Made by a program: the position numbers and the translations under genes. The notes under the pieces are model-generated. The model was not told where the DNA came from. It searched no databases and was given only the letters and a program-made list of their open reading frames with translations. From a virus: 31,707 nt of DNA. The stretch lies in IMG/VR virus record IMGVR_UViG_3300033232_000021, positions 1 to 31,707 of that record. The stretch is one strand, 5' to 3'. Positions 954 to 21,226 of this stretch are shown here, piece after piece. Each line of letters opens with the position of its first letter. The first letter of the stretch is position 1.

Positions 954-2462
954 TTATATCTCAATCCAAAAATATTTGTTATCAGGGTCCTCTGGTTTTA
1001 AGTTGTAGTAAATTCTTTCACCAAGTGGAACTATCAGTCTTGATGGTTGTGGTATATAAGCATTACAGTCTGGTGCTGATGAAACCAACGTTTGTACATC
1101 TGGAGATACTGTCACACTTCTTTTTGTTGTTATTGTTACATCTTGTGCTGATGATGTTAAAGATTGTTCACTTACACCAATAGATATTGTTCCTGATAAT
1201 GCTATGGTTGGACTATTAGCAACCGAAGTTAATGATTGAACTCCAGCACTTATTGAAACATTCCTTATAACAGAGACGTTTATAGTAGGTTGAGAGCTGG
1301 TTAGTACCTGTGCTTCTGGTGTAACGGTTACGCCCCTTACTGTTGTAATAGTTACATCCTGTGCTGATACGTTAGACGATATAGCATTTGGTGATACTGA
1401 TATATTACCAGCAGTTGAAACACCCGCCCCATCTGTACTCGCAACTAATGATTGTACTTCAGGAGATATGGTTACTGATTTAGTTGTTGTTATTGTAAGT
1501 GTGGGTTGGGAAGATGTTAGTTCGTTTGTTGTAACATTTACAATCGTACCACTTGCTAATGATATTGTTGGTGATACTGCTGTTCCTGTTAGTACTTGTG
1601 CTTCTGGAGTTATGGTTACATTCCTAACACTTGTTACTGTAGGTACTGGTTGAGATGTAGTACACACGTTAGCATCAGGAGTAATTGTTGCATTCCTAAT
1701 AGCTGAAACTGTAGCTGTAGGTATAGATGACGTTAATGCCAAAACACCTGCAAGTATAGTTGCACCTATTCCTAATGTTACTGCATTAGTAGAAGCTGTT
1801 AATGATTGAACTTCCACACTTGTAGATACATTTCTTACACCTGTAGTTGTAGCGGTTGGTTGAGAACTTGTTAGAGTCTGAACTGATGGTGTAATGGTTA
1901 CACTTGTTGACTCACTTCCCCAAGAAACATTTTCATTTAGGTTAAGGAAGGTGTTTGTACCTGTTCCTGCTGCATTTCCACCAAACCATACAGTACAAGT
2001 ATAGCCATTAGCCATAGTGCCTACATTTGTAATGTATAGTTTCAAAACTAACCTATCATCTGCAGAAAACCCTGTATCTGTTACATCACCAACCCAAGTC
2101 ATTGCAGCTTCTGAACCTGTTTTATTAAATTCTACACCATCGTCAAATGGACCACCACTAATAAGAGTCTCACTCCCACCACTCCATTTATAAAGTCGGT
2201 ATCTACCACCTGCATTAGCTTTAGCGTTATCCTCACTTGCCCAGATTGAAATATCTGTCGTAGTTAAAGTAAACCCCGTCCCCACGGGTGGGGAAATCCA
2301 AGCCATTGCAGTCCCACCAGCAGTTTTAGTCCATTGAATATCTGTCCCAGAGGCAGAGGTATTAACTACCCCTGTTGTCCCAGAAGTACCTGCTGATAAA
2401 TCAAGGTCGTAATACCCGCTTACTCTTGTTTGTTCACTTCTTAAATATAATTTAGTTGCCAT
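954..2462 (-). CDS. Tail fibre / surface fibre protein (502 aa). It has a globular N-terminal domain of about 180 aa, then about 290 aa of degenerate Ser/Thr/Val-rich repeats.
   Basis: Repeats of about 24 or 48 aa look like VTITPEAQVLTSSQPT....VRN, and each ends in R/K-N/S/G. The gene lies in the late operon downstream of the capsid genes. Extended beta-strand-like composition is typical of fibres. Confidence 0.65.
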   Translation of the reverse strand: MATKLYLRSEQTRVSGYYDLDLSAGTSGTTGVVNTSASGTDIQWTKTAGGTAMAWISPPVGTGFTLTTTDISIWASEDNAKANAGGRYRLYKWSGGSETLISGGPFDDGVEFNKTGSEAAMTWVGDVTDTGFSADDRLVLKLYITNVGTMANGYTCTVWFGGNAAGTGTNTFLNLNENVSWGSESTSVTITPSVQTLTSSQPTATTTGVRNVSTSVEVQSLTASTNAVTLGIGATILAGVLALTSSIPTATVSAIRNATITPDANVCTTSQPVPTVTSVRNVTITPEAQVLTGTAVSPTISLASGTIVNVTTNELTSSQPTLTITTTKSVTISPEVQSLVASTDGAGVSTAGNISVSPNAISSNVSAQDVTITTVRGVTVTPEAQVLTSSQPTINVSVIRNVSISAGVQSLTSVANSPTIALSGTISIGVSEQSLTSSAQDVTITTKRSVTVSPDVQTLVSSAPDCNAYIPQPSRLIVPLGERIYYNLKPEDPDNKYFWIEI

Positions 2463-3343: not shown

Positions 3344-3598
3344 CTAAGAATAACTTAATGTTAAATAATTATCCCAAATATTATCAAAATTAGCATCACC
3401 ATCTGCCCAAGTAACTATTAAACCAGATGCTGTATTTAACTTCTTAATTCTCCACACGTTATTACTCGTAGCAGAACCTATCTGTGCCTTACCAACATAT
3501 ATAGTATCACCAGACTCTACCAATCGAATAGTATATTCACCCTCAATGGCTGATATAACACCTGATAGATCTGTTTTAGAAAATCCTGTACTAACCAT
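3344..3598 (-). CDS. Hypothetical small protein (84 aa).
   Basis: ATG ORF that overlaps the stop of the upstream GT-B gene. Confidence 0.55.
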   Translation of the reverse strand: MVSTGFSKTDLSGVISAIEGEYTIRLVESGDTIYVGKAQIGSATSNNVWRIKKLNTASGLIVTWADGDANFDNIWDNYLTLSYS

Positions 3599-4676
3599 GC
3601 ACTACCTCCATATAAATATCTAAAAAATCCTGAAGGTGGTCTTTTAGGTTAAACTTTTCCTTAACTTCTTTACACGCTTGTTTTCCTATCTTTTTTCTTA
3701 AATCCCTATCCTCAATTAACATTGAGATGTATTTTTCCCACTCTTCCTCTGTTGAAGCTAAAAATCCATTCTTCCCATGATCCACTACATCAGAATAAAG
3801 CACGGGGGAACATACTGCAGGTGTTTCAAGTATCCCATACTCCATCCACTTGATAGGTGTTTTACATCTATTAAAGTAATCATCAACTAATGGTGCTATT
3901 CCTATATCAAAGTCAAGCGTCCTGTGTTTCATCGGCCAATAGTCTTCTCTTACACCTATCGCAAACTCGCGTCTGTGTCTCGGGAGTTCTTTAAAAACAT
4001 CCTCTCCCCAACTTGCCTCTGTGTATATTTTATCACTACTCATACCTCCAAAGCCACAATAAACAAATTTCAACTGTGGATATTTGTCTAAAAGTCGCCC
4101 TATAACAGGTGTAATCATTCTCATATCTTCATAGTGTCCGCGCGAACCAAACCAACCAAGTCTTATCTCGTCTGTGGTTCGTTCTATATTTAATCTACCT
4201 TCGCCGTACCAATCATAGTTTATATAGTTAGGAACTACATATATCGGTTTATCGGTATGTTTGGCGTGGTTTTCTTTTAAGTGTTCGTTTGTAACCATTA
4301 AAGCATCTACAAGTTGGATTGTTTCTATAGTCTTTTCTCTGTGGTGTTCTCCTATGTGTTGAAGGTTTTTTCGTTCCTTTCCATAAGCATCTAACATTGC
4401 GTCATCTGACTCGTATATTACCTTTGCACCTTGAGCCTGACACTCTCTTACCATATCAGGGGAGGTAAGCATTTCCATTATTACAAGGTTAGTTCCTTGA
4501 GGAAGTCTACCGTTCCACTTAGTCCACTCTGTTACATATACTGCGTGGTCTTCTGTTTGAGTGTTTAACCAATCAGCAACACCATCTATTCTAAATGCGT
4601 GAGAAGCTGTTCCATTTGTAAAGAATACAGCGTTAATCTTTTTTGCCGTAGTATTCATATAACCCTTTCTGTGCAT
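3591..4676 (-). CDS. GT-B fold glycosyltransferase (GT1/GT4-like, 361 aa).
   Basis: C-terminal EYGILETPAVCSPVLYSDVVDHGKNGFL...EEW matches the E-x7-E / nucleotide-sugar binding region of GT4-type enzymes. No TM segments. Confidence 0.75.
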   Translation of the reverse strand: MHRKGYMNTTAKKINAVFFTNGTASHAFRIDGVADWLNTQTEDHAVYVTEWTKWNGRLPQGTNLVIMEMLTSPDMVRECQAQGAKVIYESDDAMLDAYGKERKNLQHIGEHHREKTIETIQLVDALMVTNEHLKENHAKHTDKPIYVVPNYINYDWYGEGRLNIERTTDEIRLGWFGSRGHYEDMRMITPVIGRLLDKYPQLKFVYCGFGGMSSDKIYTEASWGEDVFKELPRHRREFAIGVREDYWPMKHRTLDFDIGIAPLVDDYFNRCKTPIKWMEYGILETPAVCSPVLYSDVVDHGKNGFLASTEEEWEKYISMLIEDRDLRKKIGKQACKEVKEKFNLKDHLQDFLDIYMEVVHG

Positions 4677-5235
4677 TAAGCACCTCTGATAAAAACATAA
4701 ACTCTGTATCTGGGGACAGTTTTAATATCCTGTGCATTGTTTCCTCAAGCCCATTATCACATACATCTTGAATGTGTCCGTGAGCTATTATAGGTTCTTT
4801 AGCATCTGCGTTAGGTTCATCGTTAGATAAGTTCCAATTATAATAACCATCCTCTACTACCTTAAATCCTGCGTCTAATGCTGCTTGTTTTGCTTCCTTT
4901 GATAACTCCCACTGCGGTGCTTTGAATATTTTAGTAAAGTTTTTAATCCCAGCGTTTTGGAACATCTTTTGTCCTACTGTTAGTCTTTTTAAAGCACCCT
5001 CATAAGAAAGTTCTGCAAACTCTGATGGTGCGTGTGTTAGTCCATGCAGTGCAACCTCTATCCAATCGGCTTTGTTTACAGCCTCAACGAATGGTTTAAA
5101 TTTATCAAGTGTTATAGGTGCGGAGTCTTGAATGTTCTTGCAATACCTAACCTCCCAAGGAACAGTGAATAAAGTCACCTTAAAGTTAGGGAAGTGGTCT
5201 GCCATTTCCTCTAAATACACAAGACCGTGGTTCAC
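4633..5235 (-). CDS. Polysaccharide-deacetylase-like (DUF2334/NodB-like) protein. It may be N-terminally truncated.
   Basis: Contains KVTLFTVP...ALHGLTH...FKAPQWE motifs. The only start in the track is GTG at 5235, and no SD is visible. The in-frame peptide PDDFSA lies just upstream, behind a TGA. Confidence 0.45.
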   Translation of the reverse strand: MNHGLVYLEEMADHFPNFKVTLFTVPWEVRYCKNIQDSAPITLDKFKPFVEAVNKADWIEVALHGLTHAPSEFAELSYEGALKRLTVGQKMFQNAGIKNFTKIFKAPQWELSKEAKQAALDAGFKVVEDGYYNWNLSNDEPNADAKEPIIAHGHIQDVCDNGLEETMHRILKLSPDTEFMFLSEVLNAQKGLYEYYGKKD

Positions 5236-5296
5236 GGCAGAAAAATCATCCGGTCATATTCTATCGCAACTCTTAGGGGCTTATCCTTTTTCTTGC

Positions 5297-5734
5297 TTAT
5301 AGACATAAAGGCACCACCTCCTTCCGATGTTCATTTAAATGACATGCCTGACACAGGACTTCTAAATTTTTTACTATATTATTCTTTTTATTTCTGTCTT
5401 TATGGTGTATCACAAGAGTAACCTCGTCTTTCCCCCTACCACACCTTTCACAAAAAGCATTGATAGTGGATTTATTACCTTCAAAAAACTTATTCTCTGA
5501 CCATCTTCTTTTATATAGTCTTGTGCTTTTCTTCCTGTTGAACTTTGTCCAAATTTCTTTACGAGTCTTTTTATGTTCTTTTTCATATTCTCTACGACAT
5601 TTCTCAGAACAGTAACTAATACTATAACTATCTCTATTGGCTTTCTTAACATCATACTCAGCTCTTTTAAAATCTTCCCCACAGTTTTTGCACTCGTATT
5701 TATAATATTTACCTCTGGGTCTTCCCATAAACAT
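5297..5734 (-). CDS. Free-standing HNH homing endonuclease with N-terminal Zn-ribbons.
   Basis: VIHHKDRNKKNN...LEVLCQACHLNEH is a canonical HNH motif. CKNCG and CSEKC pairs lie in the N-terminal part. Confidence 0.85.
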   Translation of the reverse strand: MFMGRPRGKYYKYECKNCGEDFKRAEYDVKKANRDSYSISYCSEKCRREYEKEHKKTRKEIWTKFNRKKSTRLYKRRWSENKFFEGNKSTINAFCERCGRGKDEVTLVIHHKDRNKKNNIVKNLEVLCQACHLNEHRKEVVPLCL

Positions 5735-5765
5735 ATTATACTACATCTGTCCAGAAAACCTATTT

Positions 5766-6284
5766 TCATTTAGTAACCTCCAAAAAATAATCACCGTTAG
5801 ATAGCTTTGTAATATCTACATTCTCACCGAAAGCATCTACAAGCTCTTGGTATGTTACTACCTTAGCAGGTTCGCTCTCCCTTTCAAGTGTGGAAGGTGC
5901 TTCTATTATACCTATTCCGTCAGGTTTTAGTATTCTTAATATCTCTTTATAGGCATCGTTTCTATTTTCTAATATGTGTTCAACTACTGCGTAGCATATA
6001 ACCATATCAAACGTATTGTCCTCAAAGTTTGTTTTTCTTATGTCTTGAACGTATGTCGGTAGAACGTTAGGATCAATGTCTAATGTTTCATACGTGGCGT
6101 TATCAAACATATAAGCATGACCGCCGGGCCAAACATCGCCGTGTATTCCTATGTCTAATACTCTTTTACCTTGTAAGTCTACCATCTTAGCAATTGCTTC
6201 AAGTCTTTGCCAACCCGGTCTTGACCTTGCGTTTGCAATCATATTTTCTTTTATTTCTGGTGTAATTTTTGACATATTAACCAA
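5766..6284 (-). CDS. Class I SAM-dependent methyltransferase (about 170 aa).
   Basis: RVLDIGIHGD resembles motif I. MVICYAVVEHI and LKPDGIGII are post-I-like motifs. The start is ambiguous: TTG at 6284 with GAGGAG upstream, or ATG at 6275. Confidence 0.7.
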   Translation of the reverse strand: MVNMSKITPEIKENMIANARSRPGWQRLEAIAKMVDLQGKRVLDIGIHGDVWPGGHAYMFDNATYETLDIDPNVLPTYVQDIRKTNFEDNTFDMVICYAVVEHILENRNDAYKEILRILKPDGIGIIEAPSTLERESEPAKVVTYQELVDAFGENVDITKLSNGDYFLEVTK

Positions 6285-6814
6285 TACTCAGGTACTCCTC
6301 TTAACTTAACTGCCTCGTATATAACCTCAGCCTTTCCTTCTAATTCCTTTTTAATCTTTTCAGGGTCATCTATCCATTGCGTATGTGAGGGATTGTATTC
6401 GGGATACTCACTTTCAATAGGAACAATTAAGTATAACTTGTCGTTTAAAGCGTCTAATATACTTGCGATAGCTTTTTTTAAATCATAACTATGCTCAAGT
6501 GAGTGTGCGCAGAATATCACATCCCACTTTCCTTCAACGTAGTGCATATCTTGATACATCACTTTTGCGTATTGCTCGGCAACCTTCAGCTTGTTTCTAT
6601 CTATATCTCCACCAACTACTTTTGTATAAAGCATGTTCTCTTGAATATACTGAGTTCCCCAACCATCACCACACCCTAAATCAAGCAATGTCTTAGGCTT
6701 ACCGACAGTTTCAAGCATCCAATCTATACCCTCTTTTAAGAGTCCTTGATATCCGGGGTAATCCCTCGTCCAAGCACTTCCATTAAGTTGTAATTCTAAG
6801 TATTCTTCGTTCAT
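6251..6814 (-). CDS. Class I SAM-dependent methyltransferase (187 aa).
   Basis: LLDLGCGDGWGT is motif I. It also has VIFCAHSLEH. ATGA overlap with the upstream GT2 gene. No DPPY/NPPY DNA-methyltransferase motif seen. Confidence 0.8.
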   Translation of the reverse strand: MNEEYLELQLNGSAWTRDYPGYQGLLKEGIDWMLETVGKPKTLLDLGCGDGWGTQYIQENMLYTKVVGGDIDRNKLKVAEQYAKVMYQDMHYVEGKWDVIFCAHSLEHSYDLKKAIASILDALNDKLYLIVPIESEYPEYNPSHTQWIDDPEKIKKELEGKAEVIYEAVKLRGVPEYWLICQKLHQK

Positions 6815-8244
6815 GCTACTTCGGTTTTTTCTTTTATACGCCTTTCAAAATAATCGGGGTACTTTTCTTTTTGTCCGCTTGTTCCATCTATATGCCACAC
6901 TCTATGTAAAGGAATGTAACAAGGCATGTATCCTTTTTCTCTAAAGTTCTTACTTGCCTCACTATCTTGGTTTCCGTGTTTGAATTGGTCTGTCCATCTA
7001 AAATCGTCATAAGCCTTACTACTAACAAATGCACACAACCCCCCTACGTGTTTAGTGACTTCTATAGAATAAGGACCGATAGTTGAATATCCAAGCCTTA
7101 TAGCACCACCGGGATTGTCAACAAGCCCTTCAGGATAGGGTGACATATAAAGCATGTGATTCCTTCGCCACAGGTCTACTAAAGACTCAAGCCAATGCTT
7201 TGTCATGAAAGCGCAGTCGTTATCTACCTTAATAATTACGTCATATCCAATTTTTTGTATCTTATCTAATAAATGGTTAGATGCTTTTGTTATACCTACG
7301 TTTGAGCCATTTAGATGAACGTATCTTGGTTTCACTTCGTCCATTAACCAATCCCCTGTTCCATCATCACTTCCCTGATCAAACACAAACCAATCAAACG
7401 GATACTTTGTGGAGTCTTTTAACGACTCGTACATTTGTTTAGTGTATTCAATTCTCCCATACGTTAGTGTAAATATAGCAACTCGTGGGTTTCTTTCGTG
7501 TGGGTTTTCACCCAAAAAGGGTCTAAAGATATAATCTCCAACAGGGTCAAATGGTGGTTTAAACATCATCATCTTATACATAGGGTCATACCACGACTCT
7601 ACCTCGGTTCTTTTTGACTGTGTGTCGCCTTCGTGAATGTAATATTTAGTAGCAACAATAGGAACACGTTTAAATCTTGCACCCCACTTCATTGCTCTTA
7701 TACAAAAGTTCCAATCAGTAAATCGTTTAACGCTCTCGTCCCAACCACCTATATTGAAAGCCACTTCCTTCTTGTGCATTATCTCTGATGTATCTATGAA
7801 ATTTCTATTAAGTAGAAACTGTCCGTCAAAATCCACTGCTATTGCCTGTGATAACTCGCCGTCAGGTTGAACAGTCATCATATCACAGTATGATACGTCT
7901 GCTTTATCTTTTTCTAATACATCTAAAAGTATCTCTAAATGATATGGGTAATATTCGTTATCATCGTCTAAATAGGCTATATACTTGCCTTTTGCTTCTT
8001 TTAAGGCTAAATTGAACGGTCTACAATGCGTTTTAGCGGGGTTATCTTCATTTTTGATATATCGTATCCTCTTATCTTTGAACCCCTTTATCACTTTTTC
8101 GGTGTCGTCTGTGCAGTTATCTGCAACTATTATGTATTCAAAATCATCTTCCGTTTGAGCCAACACTGATTTAATAGCTCTCGGTAATAGGTCCGCCCTA
8201 TTATGCGTGGCCGTGATAACGGAAATCTTAGGTGCTTGGTCCAT
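6811..8244 (-). CDS. Two-domain GT-A (family 2-like) glycosyltransferase (477 aa).
   Basis: Domain 1 has ISVITATHNRADLL...YIIVADNCTDDT...AYLDDDN (DxD). Domain 2 has VAIFTLTYGR...FVFDQGSDDGT...IKVDNDC. No TM segments. Confidence 0.85.
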   Translation of the reverse strand: MDQAPKISVITATHNRADLLPRAIKSVLAQTEDDFEYIIVADNCTDDTEKVIKGFKDKRIRYIKNEDNPAKTHCRPFNLALKEAKGKYIAYLDDDNEYYPYHLEILLDVLEKDKADVSYCDMMTVQPDGELSQAIAVDFDGQFLLNRNFIDTSEIMHKKEVAFNIGGWDESVKRFTDWNFCIRAMKWGARFKRVPIVATKYYIHEGDTQSKRTEVESWYDPMYKMMMFKPPFDPVGDYIFRPFLGENPHERNPRVAIFTLTYGRIEYTKQMYESLKDSTKYPFDWFVFDQGSDDGTGDWLMDEVKPRYVHLNGSNVGITKASNHLLDKIQKIGYDVIIKVDNDCAFMTKHWLESLVDLWRRNHMLYMSPYPEGLVDNPGGAIRLGYSTIGPYSIEVTKHVGGLCAFVSSKAYDDFRWTDQFKHGNQDSEASKNFREKGYMPCYIPLHRVWHIDGTSGQKEKYPDYFERRIKEKTEVA

Positions 8245-8599
8245 ATTGATCCCTTCCCGCTATACCCGATATCTCACTATCAGGATAGTCAATTCCATAC
8301 ACTAACATTGTTCTTTGTTTGTGATTAGTTACCCATCCGTAGTTACGCAGTAAATTAACAACTGTTTTTCTACCGCGCTTTCTTATAGGGCCTTGGACGT
8401 ACTTCATTGGGTCATCGGGGTCACGTAGCATAAACCTATACCCATTTAAATGTAGTTCCCCTTTTGAAAATCTACCAATATACCCCCCTTTACCGGATAT
8501 GCCTTTAAAAATTCCCTCCACATCCACAACACCTCTGTGTCGGATTGTGAGTTTAGGATTTATCTTTTTTAGCAGTTTTTGAAATCGTGCTATGGTCAT
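8228..8599 (-). CDS. Hypothetical basic protein (123 aa).
   Basis: ATG ORF that overlaps both neighbours. Confidence 0.5.
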   Translation of the reverse strand: MTIARFQKLLKKINPKLTIRHRGVVDVEGIFKGISGKGGYIGRFSKGELHLNGYRFMLRDPDDPMKYVQGPIRKRGRKTVVNLLRNYGWVTNHKQRTMLVYGIDYPDSEISGIAGRDQYGPST

Positions 8600-8891
8600 A
8601 ATATGCCATTATGTCGTCCTGTGCGACTACCACCCAACCATCTTTTTGAATCTCTGAGAATGTTTTTTTACCCGAAATAATATCTCTAACATCAAATACA
8701 TTTGCTGCGGAATACTCGGAATAAAACACTCCCTGTCCTTTTTCAAACTTAGTGTCTCCCTGATGAACTATCTCACCATAGAATAGGTTCTCTCCTGCTT
8801 TAAGTTGTCCTGCGATGATGATTCCTGAAGATGTTAGTTCTTCAATGTGTATGGGTTTAATTATTACACGATCTGTGTTTGGTATTACCAT
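8553..8891 (-). CDS. GroES/Cpn10-like co-chaperonin.
   Basis: From the ATG at 8891: MVIPNTDRVIIKPIHIEELTSSGIIIAG...GEIVHQGD...VVVAQDDIMAY. This parallels the GroES pattern (DRVIVK...T.GGI....GEVVAVG...SDILA). The track start at 8918 is a GTG inside a hairpin. Confidence 0.65.
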   Translation of the reverse strand: MVIPNTDRVIIKPIHIEELTSSGIIIAGQLKAGENLFYGEIVHQGDTKFEKGQGVFYSEYSAANVFDVRDIISGKKTFSEIQKDGWVVVAQDDIMAYYDHSTISKTAKKDKS

Positions 8892-8908
8892 GGTTAATAT
8901 TTTATCAC

Positions 8909-8938
8909 ATAAGCCCACCCTGTAAAGAGCGGGCTTAT
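8909..8938 (-). promoter_or_regulatory. Hairpin just downstream of the capsid gene. Possible attenuator or RNA-stability element.
   Basis: 8-bp stem ataagccc/gggcttat with a 14-nt loop. No clean U tract follows on the minus strand. Confidence 0.35.
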
Positions 8939-8948
8939 TGAACTGCGA

Positions 8949-9860
8949 CTACTGTGTAGCGCCTGTTTCGATTCTTGCACAGAAAGAGTCATTTAAGACT
9001 TTAACTGCGAAAGATGCCTTCCATCCTATGTCGCTGTATAGTCTAAGCGCACTTCTTGGTGAAGGACTATCAACGTAGGTTACCAAATTTTGCAATTTAG
9101 AAACACCGAAGAAGTCTTTACCCATGATATGTGTCTGATAGACGTTAGCAGATACGCAACCTGCATAAGTAAGTACAGGGGCTTTTTGAGTCATTACGAA
9201 ACGAGTTCCGAATATCTCTCCAGCTTCCCCATTGTAGACAGCATCTATTCCCTTCTCAGTGTAAATGTGAGCATTTACCCAATTAGAGTCACCCTGTAGG
9301 TCATAAATAACGTCAGGATGTGCTGTACCAACAAATTTTCCTTTAGTATGTGGTTGGGCTGCGAAGTTGTTCAAGGTTCTTAATGCTTTTCTAACATCAG
9401 ATACCTGAATAGCGTTTGCAGCAACAAGTGAATTTCTTGCAACTATTGAACCTTGTAGTTGCTGAGTACCTCCTGCAGTTAATGTGTTAGCGATGACTGT
9501 GTCTATTGATAGAGCAGCCTCATAAGCTAATACATCAATAACTTCTTTAATCAAGGTATCTATAGCGGTCAATTCAAGTAGGTCAGAAACCTGCTCAAAG
9601 TTACCGTATTGAGCTACGGTTGCAGAAATTAAGGTTGCAGAAAGTCCTGCGGGTGTAGGATCAAATGATTCAGATAGTGCTGTTTTAGCGGTTGGGTTTG
9701 TTAACCTGTTCCATACGACAGTCTTACCTTCATTAGCGGGGACTCTCCCTGCTGTTCCTAAACCCTCAAATACGAAGTTCTCTTCTGCTCTCATAAGGAA
9801 ACGCTTCTCATAGTAAGCAGCTACCGGTTGAGGCATTTGAGTTGTATGTGTTCTTGCCAT
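8949..9860 (-). CDS. Major capsid protein (HK97-fold type, 303 aa).
   Basis: Lies directly after the scaffold-like gene. Strong SD (GGGGGTGA). The pattern YYEKRFL...EGKTVVWNRL...ATVAQYGNFEQVSD is typical of small HK97-like capsid proteins. Confidence 0.8.
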   Translation of the reverse strand: MARTHTTQMPQPVAAYYEKRFLMRAEENFVFEGLGTAGRVPANEGKTVVWNRLTNPTAKTALSESFDPTPAGLSATLISATVAQYGNFEQVSDLLELTAIDTLIKEVIDVLAYEAALSIDTVIANTLTAGGTQQLQGSIVARNSLVAANAIQVSDVRKALRTLNNFAAQPHTKGKFVGTAHPDVIYDLQGDSNWVNAHIYTEKGIDAVYNGEAGEIFGTRFVMTQKAPVLTYAGCVSANVYQTHIMGKDFFGVSKLQNLVTYVDSPSPRSALRLYSDIGWKASFAVKVLNDSFCARIETGATQ

Positions 9861-9910
9861 TTTAAGTTTTCACCCCCATTCAAATAAAAGACTTTTTACA
9901 AGCCTCTTTA

Positions 9911-10801
9911 TTATCTGGAGAATTCTGACTCTAATGACTCAAGCTCATCTATGTTTTTGACTGAACGTAGTTTCTTTTCTAAAGAAGGGTTTTCGCTTAC
10001 GCTTTCACCCGACGGTCTAAATGCTTGTTCGCCCTCTTGTTTGTTAACAGTAGACCTAACTTCATCCGCACCTTCGGAACGACCCCTCTCTTTAATAGAC
10101 ATCCAATCGTCTACAAAAGCGTCAAAGCGGTAATATTTACCTTTCTTCCTGTATTCTTCAAATATGGGTTTATAGTAAGTAGCTACTTTTTCAGCTAAGT
10201 TGTTGTCGTACTTAGGTCCTGATTCAATATCATTGAGTTCAGGATAAGATGAACGTACTTTTTCAAGGTCAGACTTAAAGGCTTCGTAAATTGCTTTCTC
10301 CCGCCTCGTGTTTTCTCTTGTGTTTAATACTTGTTCAACAACATCCTTTGCTGCTAATGCAACGTGCTTCTTATATTCGTTAGGATTGATTGCTGGTTGT
10401 CCATTACTCCACGGTAAATTAGAGGGAGCAATAACACTATCGTCAATCTCAACATCTCCCATGGGGAAATCTTCCCCTAAGTTAATAACAGGTTCTTCCT
10501 TTTTAGGTTCAACCTTCTTTGACTCAAGCTCTTTTAGTCTTTGAGCCATATCTCTAAAGCGTTTTTGTGCTTTCTCAGATAATGAAGAGATCTCATTTTC
10601 GGTTAAATCTTCTGAAGGGTCATTGGCATCTCCTTCTTCTGACTTTTCCTCAATGTCCTTTTCTTCTGAAGTTGGCGAATCTTCGTCAGAGGCTTGTCCC
10701 TCTGACTGCTCTGAAGTTTCTTCCTCAGTGGAGTTTGCCAATTCTTCCTCCATCTTAGAAAGTTCCTCCTCGGCATTTACTGCCTTTTTTTGTTTTGGCA
10801 T
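9911..10801 (-). CDS. Scaffolding protein (acidic, coiled-coil, 296 aa).
   Basis: Very Glu/Asp/Ser-rich N-terminal half. Located between portal and capsid genes. Confidence 0.6.
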   Translation of the reverse strand: MPKQKKAVNAEEELSKMEEELANSTEEETSEQSEGQASDEDSPTSEEKDIEEKSEEGDANDPSEDLTENEISSLSEKAQKRFRDMAQRLKELESKKVEPKKEEPVINLGEDFPMGDVEIDDSVIAPSNLPWSNGQPAINPNEYKKHVALAAKDVVEQVLNTRENTRREKAIYEAFKSDLEKVRSSYPELNDIESGPKYDNNLAEKVATYYKPIFEEYRKKGKYYRFDAFVDDWMSIKERGRSEGADEVRSTVNKQEGEQAFRPSGESVSENPSLEKKLRSVKNIDELESLESEFSR

Positions 10802-11086: not shown

Positions 11087-11402
11087 TCTCTATTCCCTTA
11101 ATTTTCGCAACATTCTCTACCCTTGATATTATTTGGTCTGCAAACCTATTAACAAGATCAAGAGCCATAAACCTAAAACCTATCTCCTCTAAAGAAGCAG
11201 TAGTGTCCGCCTTCTTTCTTAGCTCTGAAGCAAGTGTTGACCTTTTAGTATTGATGTATCCTTTTAGATACTCCCACGCATCTGATTGAGATAGGCTTAA
11301 AAGCACATTATCTAAATCATCGCCGGGTTCAATTACTTCCTTGTGGTCATCTAATACACCGTGCATCCATTCAGGCATTGGCTTAATAGCTTCATTGTGC
11401 AT
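11067..11402 (-). CDS. Hypothetical protein (111 aa from ATG 11402).
   Basis: ATG at 11402 is preceded by GGGAGGTG at 6-nt spacing. The track start at 11411 is GTG. Confidence 0.55.
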   Translation of the reverse strand: MHNEAIKPMPEWMHGVLDDHKEVIEPGDDLDNVLLSLSQSDAWEYLKGYINTKRSTLASELRKKADTTASLEEIGFRFMALDLVNRFADQIISRVENVAKIKGIENESTIK

Positions 11403-13212
11403 AAGGTACACCTCCCATTCCTCCTAAAACTTCTTGAATCATTCCTTGTATCTGTGGGTCTGCTATATCCTCCGGCATTTGTTGTGGCATCTGAGGGGGC
11501 ATCTCTTGTGACATTTCGTCTGGTATAGACTCCAACGATTCTGCTTCGGGTTCTTTGTCTACTATTATGTTGTCCCAATCTCTCACGTTATATTTTAACC
11601 ATCTCTCAAATAACTCACCGATTCTTAGTTCCTTTCCTTCCATTGCTAATGATTCTAATACTTGAGGGCTTTCAAGGACTGATTTTAATACCGCTGTTAT
11701 TTTGTTCTGCTCTTCTTCAGGGTCTACCTGATAAGTTGATCCGGGTTCTAATACAAAGTCGTACTTGGTATCAAGCGAACCTTTCTTAATAGCAACTTGC
11801 CCTCTTTTACCTGAGTCAAACATCTCCACCACATCGGGGTATGTTTTTTCAATATCCTCTATCTCATCGCTGAATAATCTTATCTTGACGTTTTTTTCTT
11901 GCTTGGATGCTATTAAGGCAATCCATCTCTCGTATAGACTTTGAATGGTTTCGTCCATCATGAATAAGTCCCATTCGTCCCTTGCCTTTTGATTGAACAA
12001 CCTGTTCTCAATAGCACGTGGTGTTTTACCTAAGCTAAAGTCACTCTTTTGTGAAGTCATAACCTCTGTACTTCCCGCCTGATTAACAAGTGCGTTTGAC
12101 AAGAAACTATAAGTAGATTGGAACGTATCTAACCCTCTTGGGTTTACGTTCATAGGTTGAATATCTACGTTAGGGTTATCCATAAACCAAAACTCTCCCG
12201 CACCCCATTTAATTGATGATTTGACTACGTTGTCGGGATTAACGTGTAATGGGGGAAATATACTAAACTTCACGCCTTCCATGTACATGTTTATCAAACT
12301 GTTTATTGCGTACTGTAATGATTTACCTCTTGCAAACTCACCCAATCCAATAGGACTGTTCATTAAAGGTAGTGCGTCTTTTGATATCACGGGTAGCATG
12401 TAGTCAGGATATGGGTCATCTACTACTCTTAATACGTAAGGTCTTGATGTTTTAGAGTCTGCTCTCATAGGTGTCCATGTTATCCACTTATCCCTTCGGT
12501 ATTCGTGAACTATCTCTACTTTAGGAAACGATGCGTCCGATACTACGTCAGGAAATAGTGTTCTGTCTATAAAGGATGACTTATCCTGATCTACGTTTTC
12601 AAGGTCGCCACCTTTTTCTTCCAATTCTTTTATGAGGTCGTCTACATTCCATACATCTGGTGCTTCTTCTGCTCTTTTTTTAAGCCACGATACTGAAACC
12701 ATATCTCTTGCTTGAAACCAATCGGCATCATCTAACGAACATCCGGGTTGTGGGAATGAGTTTCTTATAGGAAGTAAATTAAGTTCTGGCCCAATGTAAC
12801 CTTTTTTCTTATCCACTCTCCAGGGAACTATTGCGAACATTGTTCCATATACCAGCGAATATAAATCCATCATTCTTAGTTTGGTTACAAACCTTCGCTG
12901 TTCGTTTGCTTTCTTACTGTAATAATCTAAAAACAAGTTCATCAAAAGTGTCTTGCCTATATCGTCCTTAGACGTAGCATAAGCCTTTCCTTTTGGTGAT
13001 TGCCCCATTACTCTTGCAGAGCGTTCGTACACTGTTGTTGAGAGTTTGGGGTCAAATATTTTGCCTTTACCTAACGCCTCTTTGTTTACCCCTATAAGCA
13101 TTGCCTCAAGTTCGTCCCACTCCTCTCTCCTATCACCAAGCCATGTCTTTGAGTCGGTGTAGTGTTGCTGAACGTCATCAAGGAGGGATTCTTTAAATTT
13201 TTCTTTTGCCAT
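11392..13212 (-). CDS. Portal protein (606 aa).
   Basis: Size and position are typical: downstream of terL and upstream of the scaffold and capsid genes. SD is TTAGGAGGAC. Confidence 0.8.
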   Translation of the reverse strand: MAKEKFKESLLDDVQQHYTDSKTWLGDRREEWDELEAMLIGVNKEALGKGKIFDPKLSTTVYERSARVMGQSPKGKAYATSKDDIGKTLLMNLFLDYYSKKANEQRRFVTKLRMMDLYSLVYGTMFAIVPWRVDKKKGYIGPELNLLPIRNSFPQPGCSLDDADWFQARDMVSVSWLKKRAEEAPDVWNVDDLIKELEEKGGDLENVDQDKSSFIDRTLFPDVVSDASFPKVEIVHEYRRDKWITWTPMRADSKTSRPYVLRVVDDPYPDYMLPVISKDALPLMNSPIGLGEFARGKSLQYAINSLINMYMEGVKFSIFPPLHVNPDNVVKSSIKWGAGEFWFMDNPNVDIQPMNVNPRGLDTFQSTYSFLSNALVNQAGSTEVMTSQKSDFSLGKTPRAIENRLFNQKARDEWDLFMMDETIQSLYERWIALIASKQEKNVKIRLFSDEIEDIEKTYPDVVEMFDSGKRGQVAIKKGSLDTKYDFVLEPGSTYQVDPEEEQNKITAVLKSVLESPQVLESLAMEGKELRIGELFERWLKYNVRDWDNIIVDKEPEAESLESIPDEMSQEMPPQMPQQMPEDIADPQIQGMIQEVLGGMGGVPYAQ

Positions 13213-13230: not shown

Positions 13231-13461
13231 TTATTTATATACTATTCTATCACTTTTTGACACTACCATGTCGGTTACCTGTCCTTTGTGAATACGAATA
13301 TCAAACCTAACTATCCCCGCGTCAATGTTTCCGAGCCTGTCTAATATGTCTACGACAACCTTTGAGTTCTCCTCTAATATCCTTCGTGCCATAGTACCCA
13401 TTAGGTCGGGGTGTTCTTTTAGTATCTTTTCTAAATGTTCTTCGGCAGTTTTTTTATTCAT
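13231..13461 (-). CDS. Hypothetical protein (76 aa).
   Basis: ATGA overlap with the terL stop. Confidence 0.55.
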   Translation of the reverse strand: MNKKTAEEHLEKILKEHPDLMGTMARRILEENSKVVVDILDRLGNIDAGIVRFDIRIHKGQVTDMVVSKSDRIVYK

Positions 13462-14645
13462 AGTGTTTCTAAAATATCTTGGCGGGGAAATCCCTTCATC
13501 AAATCGGTATAGTGTTCCCTACCCATACTTCTACTTATTGAACTACTCATCCCATAACGTATCGCATCCATCAAGTGGTCATTAAGCTTAGTAGGTTCGT
13601 TTATTATTATACCCGACCTATCTGTTTGCCATAAATAATTACGATATTCCTTCAGTAAGTTGGTGCTTCGTTTGGTGACTGATATCCTCTGGTCCTGTAT
13701 GTACTGAATACCTTGTAAGACACTTCCCTGTCCTTTAACAGCACCTATTATATTAACACCATACCCCCTTATCTCGTCTATGCTCTTAGGTTCTGCGGAG
13801 TCTGCTACAACGAGTGTTCTTGGTAAGCTATTTAATATATCTGCTATCTGTCTGTTAGTTTGACCGTACTCGTAGGTAACCTCGTCAAACACATACCCCC
13901 CGTTATAATAATATATCGCTACTATTGCTGTGGGGTCGTTTGTGTACCCGAAATCAAGCCCATATCGTTCAAGTCTTGCCTCGTGTGGTATTTCGTCAAG
14001 CTGTTCCCAATCTGTATAGATTCTTCCCTTAGCCTCACCTAAAAGTCCCAACCCATATACACGCCACCAATTCTCGTTATGCTTACGCGATTCTATTGCA
14101 TCTTTTACTCTTGGATCTAATGCCTCGTTATCCTGATAAGTTAGTGTCACAAAATCTACGTCCTGATTAGGTACTACCTCTGTGTACCACCAGAACTCTG
14201 ATACCGGATTCCAGTCTAACCATATTATCTTGTTAGTACGTACCTCAAGCTGTGTATATACATCGTATGAGATGTTGTTCGCCTCGTTTATGAATAATAT
14301 GTCCCTTCTTGGTCCTCTTACCTTTCCGGGTTGGTCTGCACTAAAAAACTCAACCTTTGAACCTGTGGGAAATGTATATATGTAGTCGGTCTTGTTCCAA
14401 CTTTTAGGATTAAAGTATCCGTGTTCTTCCATTATTGTTAGAAAGTCCCTTATTGCACCTCTTTTTAAATGTGGGAATGTTTCTGATACTACGGATATGG
14501 TTTCGTTCTTCTGTGTCTGTGCGCGTTGAATAATCCACAACAGAATAGATATTGTCTTTGAGGCACTTGTTCCACCGGATACACCACGTATCCTTTTTTT
14601 TAACTCAAGTAGTTTTTTTGTTCCTGTTGTTTTTATAAAACTCAT
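13458..14645 (-). CDS. terL: Terminase large subunit (small PBSX/Terminase_3-like type, 395 aa).
   Basis: Walker A-like GGTSASKT. Walker B-like ILFINEA. Nuclease motifs GLDFGYTNDPTA, VVADSAEPKSI and HLMDAIRYG. Confidence 0.9.
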   Translation of the reverse strand: MSFIKTTGTKKLLELKKRIRGVSGGTSASKTISILLWIIQRAQTQKNETISVVSETFPHLKRGAIRDFLTIMEEHGYFNPKSWNKTDYIYTFPTGSKVEFFSADQPGKVRGPRRDILFINEANNISYDVYTQLEVRTNKIIWLDWNPVSEFWWYTEVVPNQDVDFVTLTYQDNEALDPRVKDAIESRKHNENWWRVYGLGLLGEAKGRIYTDWEQLDEIPHEARLERYGLDFGYTNDPTAIVAIYYYNGGYVFDEVTYEYGQTNRQIADILNSLPRTLVVADSAEPKSIDEIRGYGVNIIGAVKGQGSVLQGIQYIQDQRISVTKRSTNLLKEYRNYLWQTDRSGIIINEPTKLNDHLMDAIRYGMSSSISRSMGREHYTDLMKGFPRQDILETL

Positions 14646-15031
14646 TCAGCTTTATCTTCTCCAAGTATGGGAACGATGTTTATCTGCATGGCGTGTGTTG
14701 GTCCTTCTTGTGGATAATCACCAACCTTTTTAGTCATTAGTTCTAAATGGTTGTAGTTACCCTTCTCAGCATATTTCAAAGTTATCTGGTCAAGTTTCGG
14801 GATTATTCTTCTACGTTTCTTTGTATATTGCTCATAAAACCAATCCTCAAACCCCTCTACCTTTAACCACTTATACCAATTAGTTCTGTCGAGTCCACAC
14901 TCTGCTGAAACTTTGGCGGGGGAATCTGTTAAAAGCCTTACCGCAGCGTCAAGATATTCAATCATTCCTGCAGTAGGCTTAAAAATAACGACTTCTGTAG
15001 AATTTTGACGATTATCAATCTCCTTAGTCAT
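14642..15031 (-). CDS. Putative terminase small subunit (129 aa).
   Basis: Immediately upstream of terL and coupled to it by an ATGA overlap. HTH-like segment AKVSAECGLDRTNWYKWLK. Confidence 0.5.
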   Translation of the reverse strand: MTKEIDNRQNSTEVVIFKPTAGMIEYLDAAVRLLTDSPAKVSAECGLDRTNWYKWLKVEGFEDWFYEQYTKKRRRIIPKLDQITLKYAEKGNYNHLELMTKKVGDYPQEGPTHAMQINIVPILGEDKAE

Positions 15032-15206
15032 CTGATAAATTCTTTAAGTTGCTACTATGTATTCCGTTGGGACTTCTTCCACCTAAAAATGATACTGATC
15101 CTTTTGCTTCTGCCTTACCATTACATAGGGGACATTTGATAGTTTCTTTTTCCGCCGTTTTTTTAAAATATTCTTTACAGTTTAAGCAGTAGAATATGTA
15201 TTTCAT
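15024..15206 (-). CDS. Zn-ribbon protein (60 aa from ATG 15206).
   Basis: CLNC...CPLC cysteine pairs. The track start at 15215 is TTG. Confidence 0.55.
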   Translation of the reverse strand: MKYIFYCLNCKEYFKKTAEKETIKCPLCNGKAEAKGSVSFLGGRSPNGIHSSNLKNLSDD

Positions 15207-15208
15207 AA

Positions 15209-15346
15209 TTACCAAAAAATAATATCTATACCTTTGTTCTTTCTATTATACACTACTGCACATTTATGAGAACAGAACTGTTGCTTCCGGTTTTTGGGTT
15301 GAAACTCTTTTCCACATTGCTTACATTTCTTTTTTTCAAACGCCAT
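15209..15346 (-). CDS. Small Zn-ribbon-like protein (45 aa), not in the ORF track.
   Basis: GGAGAAAGG SD followed by ATG. Protein is MAFEKKKCKQCGKEFQPKNRKQQFCSHKCAVVYNRKNKGIDIIFW. Confidence 0.45.
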   Translation of the reverse strand: MAFEKKKCKQCGKEFQPKNRKQQFCSHKCAVVYNRKNKGIDIIFW

Positions 15347-15482
15347 ACTTACCTTTCTCCTTATGGACTTTCTTCATGTTTTTTCTGGCTTCTTTAGTCA
15401 TTGGTCGTGGTAAGTTATTAGGAGTTAGCAGTTCAATTATTTTCCACCACAACTCTTTGTACCATTTATCTTTAATCCTCAT
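15336..15482 (-). CDS. Small basic protein (48 aa), not in the ORF track.
   Basis: ATG at 15482 follows a G-rich stretch. Protein is MRIKDKWYKELWWKIIELL...KEKGKYGV. It overlaps the next ORF's start. Confidence 0.35.
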   Translation of the reverse strand: MRIKDKWYKELWWKIIELLTPNNLPRPMTKEARKNMKKVHKEKGKYGV

Positions 15483-15547
15483 CTTTTGAACCCCCCTTTA
15501 ATATATTTCCTTTTTTCATTTTATTCCTTTATATATCTCATATTACT

Positions 15548-15922
15548 TTAATTTTCTACAATTATATTTTTGATTTGGGAGTAGTTACACAATCCCCAAC
15601 CGAATCCCCTAACCCCCTCGTATTCAATAGTAACCAACTTTCTACTTTTACTTAAATCTCTTGCTTGTTCTGCTAACTCTTTATCATATTCATGTATACA
15701 ATATATATCCTCTTGTGAACTTGAATTGTCTGTCTTAAAGTATATTTCATAATTTTTTACAAAGAATCCCCGCTGGTCTACCGCAGTAACATATCCAGTA
15801 TGAGTACTTGGTCTTAATCCACTCAATCGAACAGAGCCTAATACAAAAATTAGACCTATCCCGAACATTAGTAAAAGTGTTCCTACAAGTATATAACCTA
15901 TTACTTCTTTTATTTTATTCAT
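15548..15922 (-). CDS. Membrane-anchored protein (N-terminal TM, 124 aa).
   Basis: Hydrophobic segment VIGYILVGTLLLMFGIGLIFVLG. ATGA overlap with the upstream ORF. Confidence 0.55.
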   Translation of the reverse strand: MNKIKEVIGYILVGTLLLMFGIGLIFVLGSVRLSGLRPSTHTGYVTAVDQRGFFVKNYEIYFKTDNSSSQEDIYCIHEYDKELAEQARDLSKSRKLVTIEYEGVRGFGWGLCNYSQIKNIIVEN

Positions 15923-16122
15923 TTAGTTCCTTTCTTTGTAGGTGCTAACTTATTAAACTCTTGCCAATATCTTAGTAAAATCATTGCGTGTCTATTACAA
16001 CAATCACACTTCATATCAAAATCATCAAAATTTCTCTGTAAACTCTCTATTAACTCCCTTTTTATATTATTAGAGTAATAAGGTTCTTTACTTTCTCTTA
16101 TTATTGTTCTTACTTTTTTCAT
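15919..16122 (-). CDS. Hypothetical protein (67 aa from ATG 16122).
   Basis: ATG at 16122 is preceded by AGAAAGGACAAG. The longer track ORF (to 16239) overlaps the 3' end of the upstream gene by about 150 nt. Confidence 0.4.
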   Translation of the reverse strand: MKKVRTIIRESKEPYYSNNIKRELIESLQRNFDDFDMKCDCCNRHAMILLRYWQEFNKLAPTKKGTK

Positions 16123-16495
16123 CTTGTCCTTTCTGTAAGTAGGTTTCTGCAAGTTTTCTTGCCTCTGCTCGTAGTAAGGAGTTAGCGACAACTGGTTGTA
16201 CATCGCTTGATATTTTAACAAATGTAGGTAACCACTCAATAAACCCTTTAACAGCTTCTTCTCTTACCTCATCATATCCCTCTTGTATAGTTTCAACACC
16301 ATCTTTTACACCCAAAAGATAACTTTTCTCTTTTTCTTGTTGTATTTTAGTTTCAACCCATTCCCACAAGTCATCTTTATTAACAGAGGAATCGCACTCA
16401 TAACAATTCATCTTAAAACCACTTGGTTTATCGCCAAAACAATGATTTATTTTTATATCAAACTCTTTTTTTATTTCCTCTATTTTATCTTTCAT
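16088..16495 (-). CDS. Hypothetical protein (135 aa).
   Basis: ATG is preceded by AGAAAGGAATAT. Confidence 0.55.
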   Translation of the reverse strand: MKDKIEEIKKEFDIKINHCFGDKPSGFKMNCYECDSSVNKDDLWEWVETKIQQEKEKSYLLGVKDGVETIQEGYDEVREEAVKGFIEWLPTFVKISSDVQPVVANSLLRAEARKLAETYLQKGQDEKSKNNNKRK

Positions 16496-16723
16496 ATATT
16501 CCTTTCTGTATGTTCACGGATAATATACATTTTTGTCTATTATCTTGTATCATACGATTCCATAAACCCTGTCTTTTTCGTGGTTTTTAACCCCGATGTT
16601 AGTTTCTCTTTAACTTCCAGTACAATTCTGTACAGGTAGGTTTTCTACCACTTTGGTTCATTGTAAGAACCTGATGGCGCTACCCTCAGTGCTTTAGACA
16701 CCAAGGGGGCGTAAATCCTAAAG

Positions 16724-19632: not shown

Positions 19633-19942
19633 CTTGTTCAAAATTGTAGTCTTCAATTTCCTGCTTAAACCTATTTACATTTACCATTCCTAATATATGT
19701 GAGTCGGTCGGTACAAAGTAGTTCCAATAACCGTTGTTTGCCTTTATATAGTAAAAAAAGAACACGGCTTTCTTCCCGGTGTTTTTCTTATAGTAGGCAA
19801 GTGCTGTGTTCTCACTTAGTATTTTTACCTTTTCAATTTCAAAAGTTTCATTCGTAAAGTTATACTCACGGTCAGGGTTTGAGAATCGTTGACCGACTTC
19901 TTTAACTTTTAGTTTTAGTTTGTCTGCTACATCTTTTTTCAT
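19625..19942 (-). CDS. Hypothetical protein (105 aa).
   Basis: ATG ORF, ATGA-coupled to the upstream gene. Confidence 0.55.
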   Translation of the reverse strand: MKKDVADKLKLKVKEVGQRFSNPDREYNFTNETFEIEKVKILSENTALAYYKKNTGKKAVFFFYYIKANNGYWNYFVPTDSHILGMVNVNRFKQEIEDYNFEQDE

Positions 19943-20301: not shown

Positions 20302-20422
20302 TTAATAAAACCCTTTCTAAATAGTCAATAATATAATCTACAGACAGCTTTTTATCAGGATAATTCTTATAATCTTTTAAAATTGCGAGTATTATTTTTA
20401 ATGCGGTTATGTCTATTTTCAT
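20294..20422 (-). CDS. Possible 42-aa ORF, not in the ORF track.
   Basis: Protein is MKIDITALKIILAILKDYKNYPDKKLSVDYIIDYLERVLLSE. A G-rich stretch lies upstream. It overlaps the GTG start of the next gene. Confidence 0.35.
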   Translation of the reverse strand: MKIDITALKIILAILKDYKNYPDKKLSVDYIIDYLERVLLSE

Positions 20423-20434
20423 CTCTACCCTACC

Positions 20435-20476: not shown

Positions 20477-20487
20477 TGGTATTATAT

Positions 20488-20703: not shown

Positions 20704-20705
20704 AC

Positions 20706-21221: not shown

Positions 21222-21226
21222 ATTGC

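Follow-up and report, generated by a model that had tools for sequence, protein, structure and literature searches.

A glycosyltransferase and methyltransferase island behind the capsid gene

Positions 1 to 31,707 of the IMG/VR virus record IMGVR_UViG_3300033232_000021, the whole stretch of DNA analysed here and hereafter called the window, carry a run of six genes for two glycosyltransferases, two S-adenosylmethionine (SAM)-dependent methyltransferases, a DUF2334 protein and an HNH endonuclease. A preceding sequence-only reading had taken this run for a glycan- and methyl-tailoring island within the late structural operon and for a candidate virion glycosylation system. Pfam, PHROGs and structure searches back its gene assignments, and the six open reading frames (ORFs) lie on the minus strand at the coordinates that it had given. 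Following transcription, the island is composed of these features (aa, amino acids):

6811..8244, minus strand: two-domain GT-A (GT2) glycosyltransferase, 477 aa (PF00535 at 3e-40, two stretches)
6251..6814, minus strand: MT1, class I SAM methyltransferase, 187 aa (Methyltransf_23/11/25, 5e-12 to 1e-8)
5766..6284, minus strand: MT2, class I SAM methyltransferase, 172 aa (Methyltransf_11 at 8.9e-13, C-terminal half only)
5297..5734, minus strand: HNH homing endonuclease (PF01844; phrog_1271 at 7e-13)
5233..5304, minus strand: residual start of the DUF2334 gene, a 24-codon leader (MSISKKKDKPLRVAIEYD...; three-frame translation of the DNA)
4633..5235, minus strand: DUF2334 protein, putative CE4/NodB deacetylase fold, 200 aa as now read (PF10096 at 9e-10)
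3591..4676, minus strand: GT-B (GT4-like) glycosyltransferase, 361 aa (phrog_7162 at 1.6e-33)

With the capsid protein as query, 20 IMG/VR loci of 56–87% identity were retrieved. Thirteen islands are complete (L005, L006, L007, L008, L009, L016, L017, L021, L022, L024, L026, L028 and L064), and six further contigs end inside or just past the two-domain GT2 gene. Every locus that reaches far enough displays the same order, namely capsid, GroES-like, 123-aa protein, two-domain GT2, a variable block, DUF2334 and GT-B. The capsid gene lies directly upstream of the island region in all relatives, the GroES-like gene is conserved upstream of the island across the clade, and the gene for the 123-aa protein always stands between the GroES-like and the two-domain GT2 genes. 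The latter marks the conserved 5' border of the island and is found in every relative whose contig extends beyond the capsid gene; the conserved 3' border is the GT-B gene. Among the loci with enough downstream sequence, no relative at 56–87% capsid identity was found without the island. Gene order thus marks the island, which spans 4.2–8.5 kb and makes up ~15% of the 31.58-kb genome of the window, as a core syntenic feature of the whole phage clade behind the capsid gene, and its proposed place in the late structural operon is upheld by the 13 complete islands of the relatives.

The closest relative, L064, encodes GT-B and DUF2334 proteins that are 85% and 84% identical to those of the window, respectively. 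In total, 230 homologues of the GT-B protein (E<1e-5) and 148 of the DUF2334 protein (E<=0.001) were retrieved; the long contigs among them are phage-sized, with up to ~45 kb, and stem from JGI, ENA, Logan and Tara data. A near-identity DNA search against GenBank phages yielded no match, and no isolate phage with a DUF2334 protein or a full-length two-domain GT2 was found. The island is absent from more distant capsid relatives (~30% identity), that is from Bacillus phage Page and a human-gut contig. A set of GT2, methyltransferase, NodB-like and GT-B genes does occupy the same slot in the freshwater podovirus MW202801 (MW202801.1; capsid 28% identical), where the order is 123-aa homologue (26% identity), radical-SAM/SPASM enzyme, GT2, PhyH dioxygenase, methyltransferase, NodB-like protein and GT-B. 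In this genome, positions 19640-22137 place the radical-SAM/SPASM enzyme and the PhyH-type Fe(II)/2-oxoglutarate dioxygenase beside the glycosyltransferases; for enzymes of both kinds, peptides or proteins are frequent targets.

The block between the conserved edges contains one or two SAM methyltransferases and one or two NAD-dependent sugar epimerases/dehydratases, in addition to a hexapeptide acyltransferase, extra GT2 or GT1 enzymes, a sulfotransferase-like protein and an RGP/GT75-like protein. One methyltransferase of a relative weakly matches NodS (8e-4). In L021, a single 657-aa ORF (7435-9408) comprises GT2, GT2 and a class I methyltransferase; methylation is tied to the glycan by this fusion of the two-domain GT2 to a methyltransferase. 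L006 carries a sulfotransferase-like gene (PF13469, 28.4 bits vs a cut-off of 27) and an RGP/GT75-like gene (1.3e-39) at 8009-8641 and 9143-10003, and the situation is similar in L009. Genes of either type are unusual in phages. None of the island proteins of the window contains a transmembrane-like segment, in agreement with the sequence-only reading, and no convincing membrane protein is present among the 109 ORFs of 14 islands (13 of the clade and that of MW202801). Hence, these islands lack a priming phosphoglycosyltransferase, a flippase, a polymerase and an oligosaccharyltransferase.

A search of genome collections for hosts returned two phage-sized contigs mis-binned in metagenome-assembled genomes (MAGs) and distant bacterial glycosyltransferases without a DUF2334 neighbour; the bacterial GT-B relatives are 23–33% identical. 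Two clade contigs, L027 (JAUWOX010000007.1) and L028 (CAYLKT010000003.1), are binned in MAGs labelled 'bacterium' and 'Thermoplasmatales archaeon', and one GT-B cluster carries the name Nitrosopumilus. These labels are probably binning artefacts and not host assignments.

The enzymes of the island

The 477-aa protein scores 138 bits with PF00535 as compared to a cut-off of 23.3, and neither of its two DxD motifs (DDD93-95; DND341-343) varies among 12 clade members. By family score and motif it is predicted to be a GT2 enzyme of the GT-A fold, and the two PF00535 stretches speak for the two domains that had been proposed. Its best PDB sequence match is the chondroitin polymerase K4CP (2.6e-18, mainly via domain 1), and heparosan synthase is also among the matches. 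Domain 2 alone yields E=0.89 with K4CP and no significant match in the PDB; a true glycosaminoglycan polymerase was considered, but domain 2 gives no support for it. A weak match to phrog_841 ('GtrB-like') is confined to the generic GT2 core. The GT2 orthologue of L007 (2684-4720) comprises 678 aa and has an extra low-complexity segment of ~200 aa in domain 2, for which an intron, an intein or an insertion that the ORF caller did not recognise as such would each be an explanation.

For the GT-B protein, matches to GT1-family Pfam entries stay below the curated cut-offs. Its structural model (predicted local distance difference test, pLDDT, 91.5) has a two-Rossmann GT-B fold with GT4 enzymes nearest, which together with the phrog_7162 match confirms the previous assignment. 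The nearest PDB folds in Foldseek are PglH, ManT, PglA, TarM, BshA, MshA, SdgB and PimA, the top matches having E values of ~1e-12 to 1e-14; a fold search of BFVD retrieved unannotated viral glycosyltransferases only. The nearest phage glycosyltransferase families are filed by PHROGs under 'moron / host takeover'. Among isolate phages, the nearest GT-B relatives belong to phi92-like Justusliebigvirus and related phages. Escherichia phage muut (NC_052657.1), for example, has four tandem glycosyltransferase genes at 107413-110589 between endolysin and primase/helicase genes. We know of no function assigned to such a run of four glycosyltransferases.

The presence of two class I SAM methyltransferases was likewise borne out. 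MT1, whose gene is coupled to the GT2 gene via an ATGA overlap, carries the canonical LDLGCGDG motif and passes the cut-offs of Methyltransf_23 and Methyltransf_11; its PDB matches are weak and concern generic small-molecule methyltransferases only. The glycine-loop motif of MT2 is atypical (DIGIHGD, a degenerate motif I), the Methyltransf_11 cut-off is passed, and the PDB matches are generic methyltransferases. Orthologues of MT1 occur in L004, L005 and L064, and those of MT2 in L005, L006, L009, L028 and L064. Neither protein matched a DNA-methyltransferase family in the Pfam and PDB searches, and their matches assign both to generic small-molecule class I families.

The DUF2334 protein had been described as deacetylase-like, which holds for the family, whereas in the window the 5' end of the gene is damaged. 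No database record exists for the exact sequence of the window protein. An intact homologue, P0122 (84% identical to the window DUF2334 protein), was modelled with a pLDDT of 95.2, and its top Foldseek matches are PdaC, Bc1960, BA3943, fungal chitin deacetylases and the deacetylase domain of NDST1, with TM-scores of 0.60–0.65. Judged by this model, the protein adopts the CE4/NodB deacetylase fold. Residues D8, D9, H76, H80, H164 and H166 are conserved in 46 DUF2334 homologues, and the Asp-Asp pair together with the four His residues represents the predicted CE4-type catalytic and metal-binding set. In the relatives, the N-terminus reads M-K-x-x-x-E-x-D-D-F-S-P and the Asp-Asp motif is intact in most of them. 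The window protein keeps the His residues (H64, H68, H152 and H154), but alignment to L064 and L006 reveals a 5-nucleotide (nt) insertion after GAATAT, which puts the Asp-Asp codons out of frame and upstream of the restart codon. The leader that remains has a good Shine-Dalgarno sequence and an ATG at 5304, and ends in a TGA that overlaps with the GTG of the restart (GTGA). Since the Asp-Asp motif is out of frame, the deacetylase step is probably lost or weakened in the window genome, unless the insertion is an assembly error; it may be either real decay or such an error. Programmed frameshifting in the leader was considered and rejected: a −1 slip at the A-rich stretch meets a stop, and there is no slippery site where one is required. 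In L005, the DUF2334 gene is frameshifted too, but by another change some codons later.

The HNH gene at 5297-5734 had been counted among the island genes. Its identification stands (PF01844), but its absence from the closest relative L064 and the mere remnant in L005 point to a mobile selfish insert outside the pathway. In L064, the MT2 and DUF2334 genes are joined by an ATGA overlap, and L005 retains just a C-terminal remnant of the same HNH (~11100-11200). A role as packaging partner or pathway enzyme was ruled out, as the gene is missing from L064. Different HNH genes are found at other places of the island in L007 (8305-8694 and 9318-9839) and L022 (14295-14786 and 17476-17871), as is a TnpB/IS605 OrfB gene in L005 (8736-10028), while the L064 island is free of HNH and TnpB inserts. 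The island is thus a hotspot for selfish elements.

Genome context and neighbouring genes

The first 127 nt of the window recur exactly at its end (1-127 and 31581-31707), and the window therefore represents a circular contig in full (unit length, 31,580 bp), that is the complete 31.58-kb genome of a small uncultured aquatic podovirus. All genes are on the minus strand. Transcription proceeds from the terminases through portal, scaffold-like, capsid, GroES-like and 123-aa proteins to the six island genes, and continues with genes for proteins of 84, 142 and 91 aa, a 502-aa repeat protein and two small genes. These are followed by a 451-aa ORF, a 672-aa protein, an SU10-type adaptor, proteins of 650 and 438 aa, an Amidase_2 endolysin and short early genes including two nucleases and an SLT-domain protein. 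The features assigned around the island are:

14642-15031, minus strand: small terminase
13458-14645, minus strand: large terminase
11392-13212, minus strand: portal
9911-10801, minus strand: scaffold-like protein
8949..9860, minus strand: major capsid protein (phrog_1357 at 1.3e-47)
8553..8918, minus strand: GroES (Cpn10)-like protein (PF00166 at 1e-7; phrog_3188)
8228..8599, minus strand: basic 123-aa protein, conserved in all clade loci
954..2462, minus strand: Ser/Thr-rich repeat protein, 502 aa, earlier called 'fibre' (Ser+Thr 29%)

Overlaps between adjacent genes measure 4–47 nt. No terminator-like site was found between island genes in the window, the sole strong minus-strand terminator of which lies at 571-544. 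The island had been placed between the capsid/GroES-like and the fibre genes; it does belong to the same late operon, but the 123-aa gene intervenes upstream and three small genes intervene downstream. The region ~15000-16500, which falls into the short-gene early region, has a GC content of ~0.31 as compared to ~0.39 elsewhere and a strongly negative GC skew; it may have a regulatory role or contain an origin.

According to the ORF assignments, the complete genome encodes neither an integrase nor a DNA polymerase. All ORFs of at least 200 aa are assigned or fall within the tail module, and those of the early region are all <136 aa or otherwise assigned. As no integrase-sized unassigned ORF is left outside the tail module, lysogenic conversion is unlikely. 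Similarly, no unassigned ORF in the genome is long enough for a thymidylate-synthase-like hydroxymethylase, in line with the earlier view that the phage lacks a dUMP/dCMP hydroxymethylase.

Candidate acceptors of the glycan

Because the enzyme set is conserved, a conserved acceptor is to be expected, and the conserved neighbours of the island are head proteins. For this reason, the major capsid protein is presumably the most probable acceptor, with the 123-aa protein as the alternative, and both are favoured over the fibre. The capsid protein is 31% identical to that of Bacillus phage Page. For the 123-aa protein, no meaningful Pfam, PHROG or PDB match was obtained, even with a 15-sequence profile; it could be a partner or an acceptor of the island.

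The sequence-only reading had linked the island to Ser/Thr-rich proteins encoded downstream. Although the 502-aa protein has a Ser+Thr content of 29%, its 11 N-x-S/T sequons are not significantly more than the 7.5 +/- 2.3 of shuffled sequences (p=0.09), and their number follows from composition. It matches no Pfam or PHROG family. The 'STSGGTT protein' at 1-295 does contain a linker repeat, [TSTSGGT]x4, but is merely the N-terminus of the 451-aa ORF, which starts at 295 and wraps across the terminal repeat to 30520-31611; the linker is followed by a coiled coil, and the protein is largely coiled-coil. In none of the relatives examined, including L064, were homologues of the 84-aa, 142-aa and 502-aa proteins found downstream of the island, nor does any Ser/Thr-rich tract recur there. 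Related phages do not keep the island linked to Ser/Thr-repeat fibres, then, and the proposed tie to the fibre and the STSGGTT protein had to be given up. With neither these homologues nor a Ser/Thr tract conserved and no significant excess of sequons, the Ser/Thr-rich fibre was rejected as the acceptor. What stands of the original proposal is that virion glycosylation is plausible, given soluble island enzymes and a position in the head operon; the fibre as the target is not retained.

Comparison with known glycosylation systems

The accounts of virion glycosylation by phage-encoded enzymes that we found in the literature concern actinobacteriophages only. For other phages, little evidence of virion glycosylation was reportedly seen by Freeman et al. 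in 2023. In mycobacteriophages, virion O-glycosylation is described for Corndog (gp35-38), Che8 (gp108-110) and Myrna (PMC11600133, PMC12363180, PMC4351075), and the glycans are reported to be covalently attached to capsid or tail proteins at C-terminal segments. Corndog-type phages carry an O-methyltransferase and three glycosyltransferases within the head-gene module (PMC4351075), the reported targets of which are capsid and tail tube (PMC11600133). The window island resembles this arrangement in that phage-encoded soluble glycosyltransferases and a methyltransferase occur without membrane components, and, as the gene layout indicates, its glycosyltransferases are expressed with structural genes. 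In contrast to the Corndog set, it adds a GT4-like GT-B, a CE4-fold DUF2334 protein and a two-domain GT2, and it follows the capsid gene in a ~31 kb podovirus of aquatic metagenomes. Orthology with Corndog gp35-38 was rejected for lack of sequence similarity, and on the same grounds the two systems are best described as analogous and not orthologous.

By analogy, the closest mechanistic precedent is the glycosylation of Vp54 in the chlorovirus PBCV-1, in which the soluble A064R (GT-GT-methyltransferase) and A061L, a second methyltransferase, jointly complete the methylated glycan that the major capsid protein carries (PMC9614988). Both systems comprise soluble multidomain glycosyltransferases and two SAM methyltransferases; the two-domain GT2 of the window followed by two methyltransferases mirrors A064R/A061L, and the L021 fusion shares the three-domain GT-GT-methyltransferase layout of A064R. 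In chloroviruses, too, the glycan make-up differs between virus lineages. However, the N-linked glycans of PBCV-1, a eukaryotic giant virus, are atypical and its glycosylation genes are scattered, whereas the window has a compact operon segment, and a chlorovirus A064R chain was not among the PDB sequence matches at E<0.01. The Corndog and PBCV-1 systems are sufficiently comparable (PMC4351075, PMC11600133, PMC9614988) to make the earlier statement, which knew of no described phage system of this type, too strong. What is new here is the combination of a GT4-like GT-B, a CE4-fold DUF2334 protein and a two-domain GT2, along with the modular variability and the lineage that hosts the island, a clade of small, uncultured aquatic podoviruses all of which carry it.

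Two bacterial systems share parts of this logic. O-glycosylation of serine-rich-repeat adhesins and SD-repeat proteins (GtfA/B, GalT1, dGT1, SdgB) likewise relies on soluble GT4 and GT2 enzymes that, in the cytoplasm and without a lipid carrier, modify Ser/Thr residues of a protein step by step, and SdgB and GalT1 are among the sequence or fold neighbours of the window enzymes. The adhesin enzymes resemble those of the window at the fold/family level only (10–15% identity), though, and they act on long Ser-rich repeats, of which the window clade has no conserved counterpart. Nod-factor tailoring (NodC, NodB, NodS) also combines a GT2, a CE4-fold deacetylase and a class I SAM methyltransferase, but its acceptor is a free chito-oligosaccharide from a membrane-bound synthase, no orthology is shown, and the deacetylase of the window is impaired.

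A putative virion glycosylation pathway and its alternatives

We give an even chance to the proposal that the island glycosylates the virion, most likely a head protein, with a methylated glycan. It is gene position that argues for this reading, and from it we infer the acceptor: a virion acceptor is favoured because of the fixed position in the head segment, the core status in the clade and the missing sign of lysogeny. The enzymes would form a self-contained cytoplasmic glycan-assembly line that is co-expressed with the head genes and most likely adds a short methylated glycan to a conserved virion component. The GT-B and the two GT-A domains would draw on host nucleotide sugars and attach the sugars directly to the protein, either folded or still assembling, without a lipid carrier, and the two SAM methyltransferases would then cap sugar hydroxyl or amino groups. 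In the relatives, the CE4-fold DUF2334 enzyme may N-deacetylate an N-acetylhexosamine, a step probably lost or weakened in the window genome. Finally, swapping of the block between the conserved edges among lineages would provide different phages with different glycans. The sugars, the linkage, the acceptor and the order of steps are presumed in this scheme.

Several points weigh against this reading. The enzymes have no direct link to a protein acceptor, and gene position is circumstantial. In difference to glycosylated mycobacteriophage capsids, for which a Ser/Thr-rich C-terminal extension has been reported, the window capsid lacks such an extension and ends ...ARIETGATQ. The fold neighbours of GT-B span diverse acceptors, i.e. 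lipid-linked sugars, teichoic acid, small molecules and proteins, and BLASTP of the window enzymes against Corndog gp35-38 returned nothing better than E=0.08. In addition, the clade has no cultured member, and no host could be assigned to it.

Among the other explanations, remodelling of the host envelope fares best, even though we consider it unlikely. Soluble transferases would alter lipid-linked O-antigen or capsule units, or teichoic-acid precursors, at the cytoplasmic face, and host export could then display the altered polymer, thereby blocking superinfection or the sticking of virions to debris. The neighbours of the island enzymes include soluble wall-polymer and lipid-linked-glycan enzymes (TarM, TarP, TarS, PglA, PglH, PglI and PimA), the 'moron / host takeover' category of the nearest phage PHROGs would fit, and relatives carry nucleotide-sugar enzymes as in O-antigen loci. 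However, the island is core to the clade and fixed in the head module, which is not what a sporadic accessory set looks like, and co-transcription with late structural genes leaves little time for surface display. The genome shows neither an integrase nor another sign of lysogeny, no island provides a priming, flipping or ligating membrane enzyme, and the bacterial GT-B relatives, at 23–33% identity, are never found beside a DUF2334 gene. Conversion of the O-antigen in the manner of Gtr systems (GtrA/GtrB/GtrC), which comprise a membrane flippase, a membrane-anchored bactoprenol glycosyltransferase and a polytopic transferase in a temperate phage, was rejected: there is no transmembrane segment in any island protein, be it of the window or of the 14 islands, and no integrase candidate. 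The argument that absence of such segments disfavours Gtr was thus right as regards Gtr itself, whereas the soluble TarM, TarP and TarS show that it does not exclude action on the host wall.

Less probable still, and in our view doubtful, is that the island makes a free or particle-associated poly- or oligosaccharide, or modifies a small non-protein acceptor, without a covalent link to the capsid. The two-domain GT2 might, for example, synthesise a polymer of repeating units as glycosaminoglycan polymerases do. Such a product would leave the clade-wide location behind the capsid gene unexplained, and no island encodes an export function. K4CP and heparosan synthase among the matches of the two-domain GT2 hint in this direction, but the K4CP similarity is essentially that of domain 1, domain 2 alone giving the insignificant value cited above (E=0.89). 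The sulfotransferase-like gene in some relatives, the resemblance of the DUF2334 model to the N-deacetylase domain of NDST1 and the small-acceptor enzymes BshA and MshA among the GT-B fold neighbours would also suit a free product.

Glycosylation and methylation of DNA that shields the phage genome from host nucleases is very improbable, and DNA glycosylation had been disfavoured by the sequence-only reading as well: phage glycosyltransferases classically act on hydroxymethylated bases (PMC9614988, PMC12619734) and the island does contain methyltransferases, but these match Methyltransf_11/23/25 and not DNA-methyltransferase families, no ORF fits a dCMP/dUMP hydroxymethylase, a TET/JBP dioxygenase, a DNA polymerase or an enzyme of nucleotide metabolism, no T4 alpha- or beta-glucosyltransferase is among the top 50 fold neighbours listed, and the epimerases, acyltransferase and CE4-fold deacetylase of the relatives would be unusual for such a role.

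Implications

If the capsid is glycosylated, self-glycosylation would extend to an abundant uncultured lineage of aquatic podoviruses, and as a core trait. We tentatively consider, at somewhat less than even chances, that small uncultured aquatic podoviruses of a widespread clade make a sugar coat for their capsids by themselves, via a soluble and operon-encoded pathway, and that exchange of the tailoring block yields 'glycotypes'. These would be akin to the diversity of bacterial O-antigens or giant-virus fibrils, but would occur on a phage of 31 kb that lives where there are no antibodies, and the combination of conserved edges with an exchangeable middle would indicate selection for diverse glycans. 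Lineages with a two-domain GT2, a CE4-fold N-deacetylase and a sulfotransferase-like gene might make a sulfated amino-sugar glycan. The coat would then have another purpose, for instance particle stability, avoidance of non-productive adsorption or grazing, or binding of host glycans, and would matter for the contacts that phage particles make in water with hosts, with grazers and with other particles. For engineering, the pathway would moreover offer a compact and fully soluble protein-glycosylation toolkit. Should the host envelope be the target instead, the island would represent an unusual, clade-fixed module for host-surface remodelling in a lytic phage.

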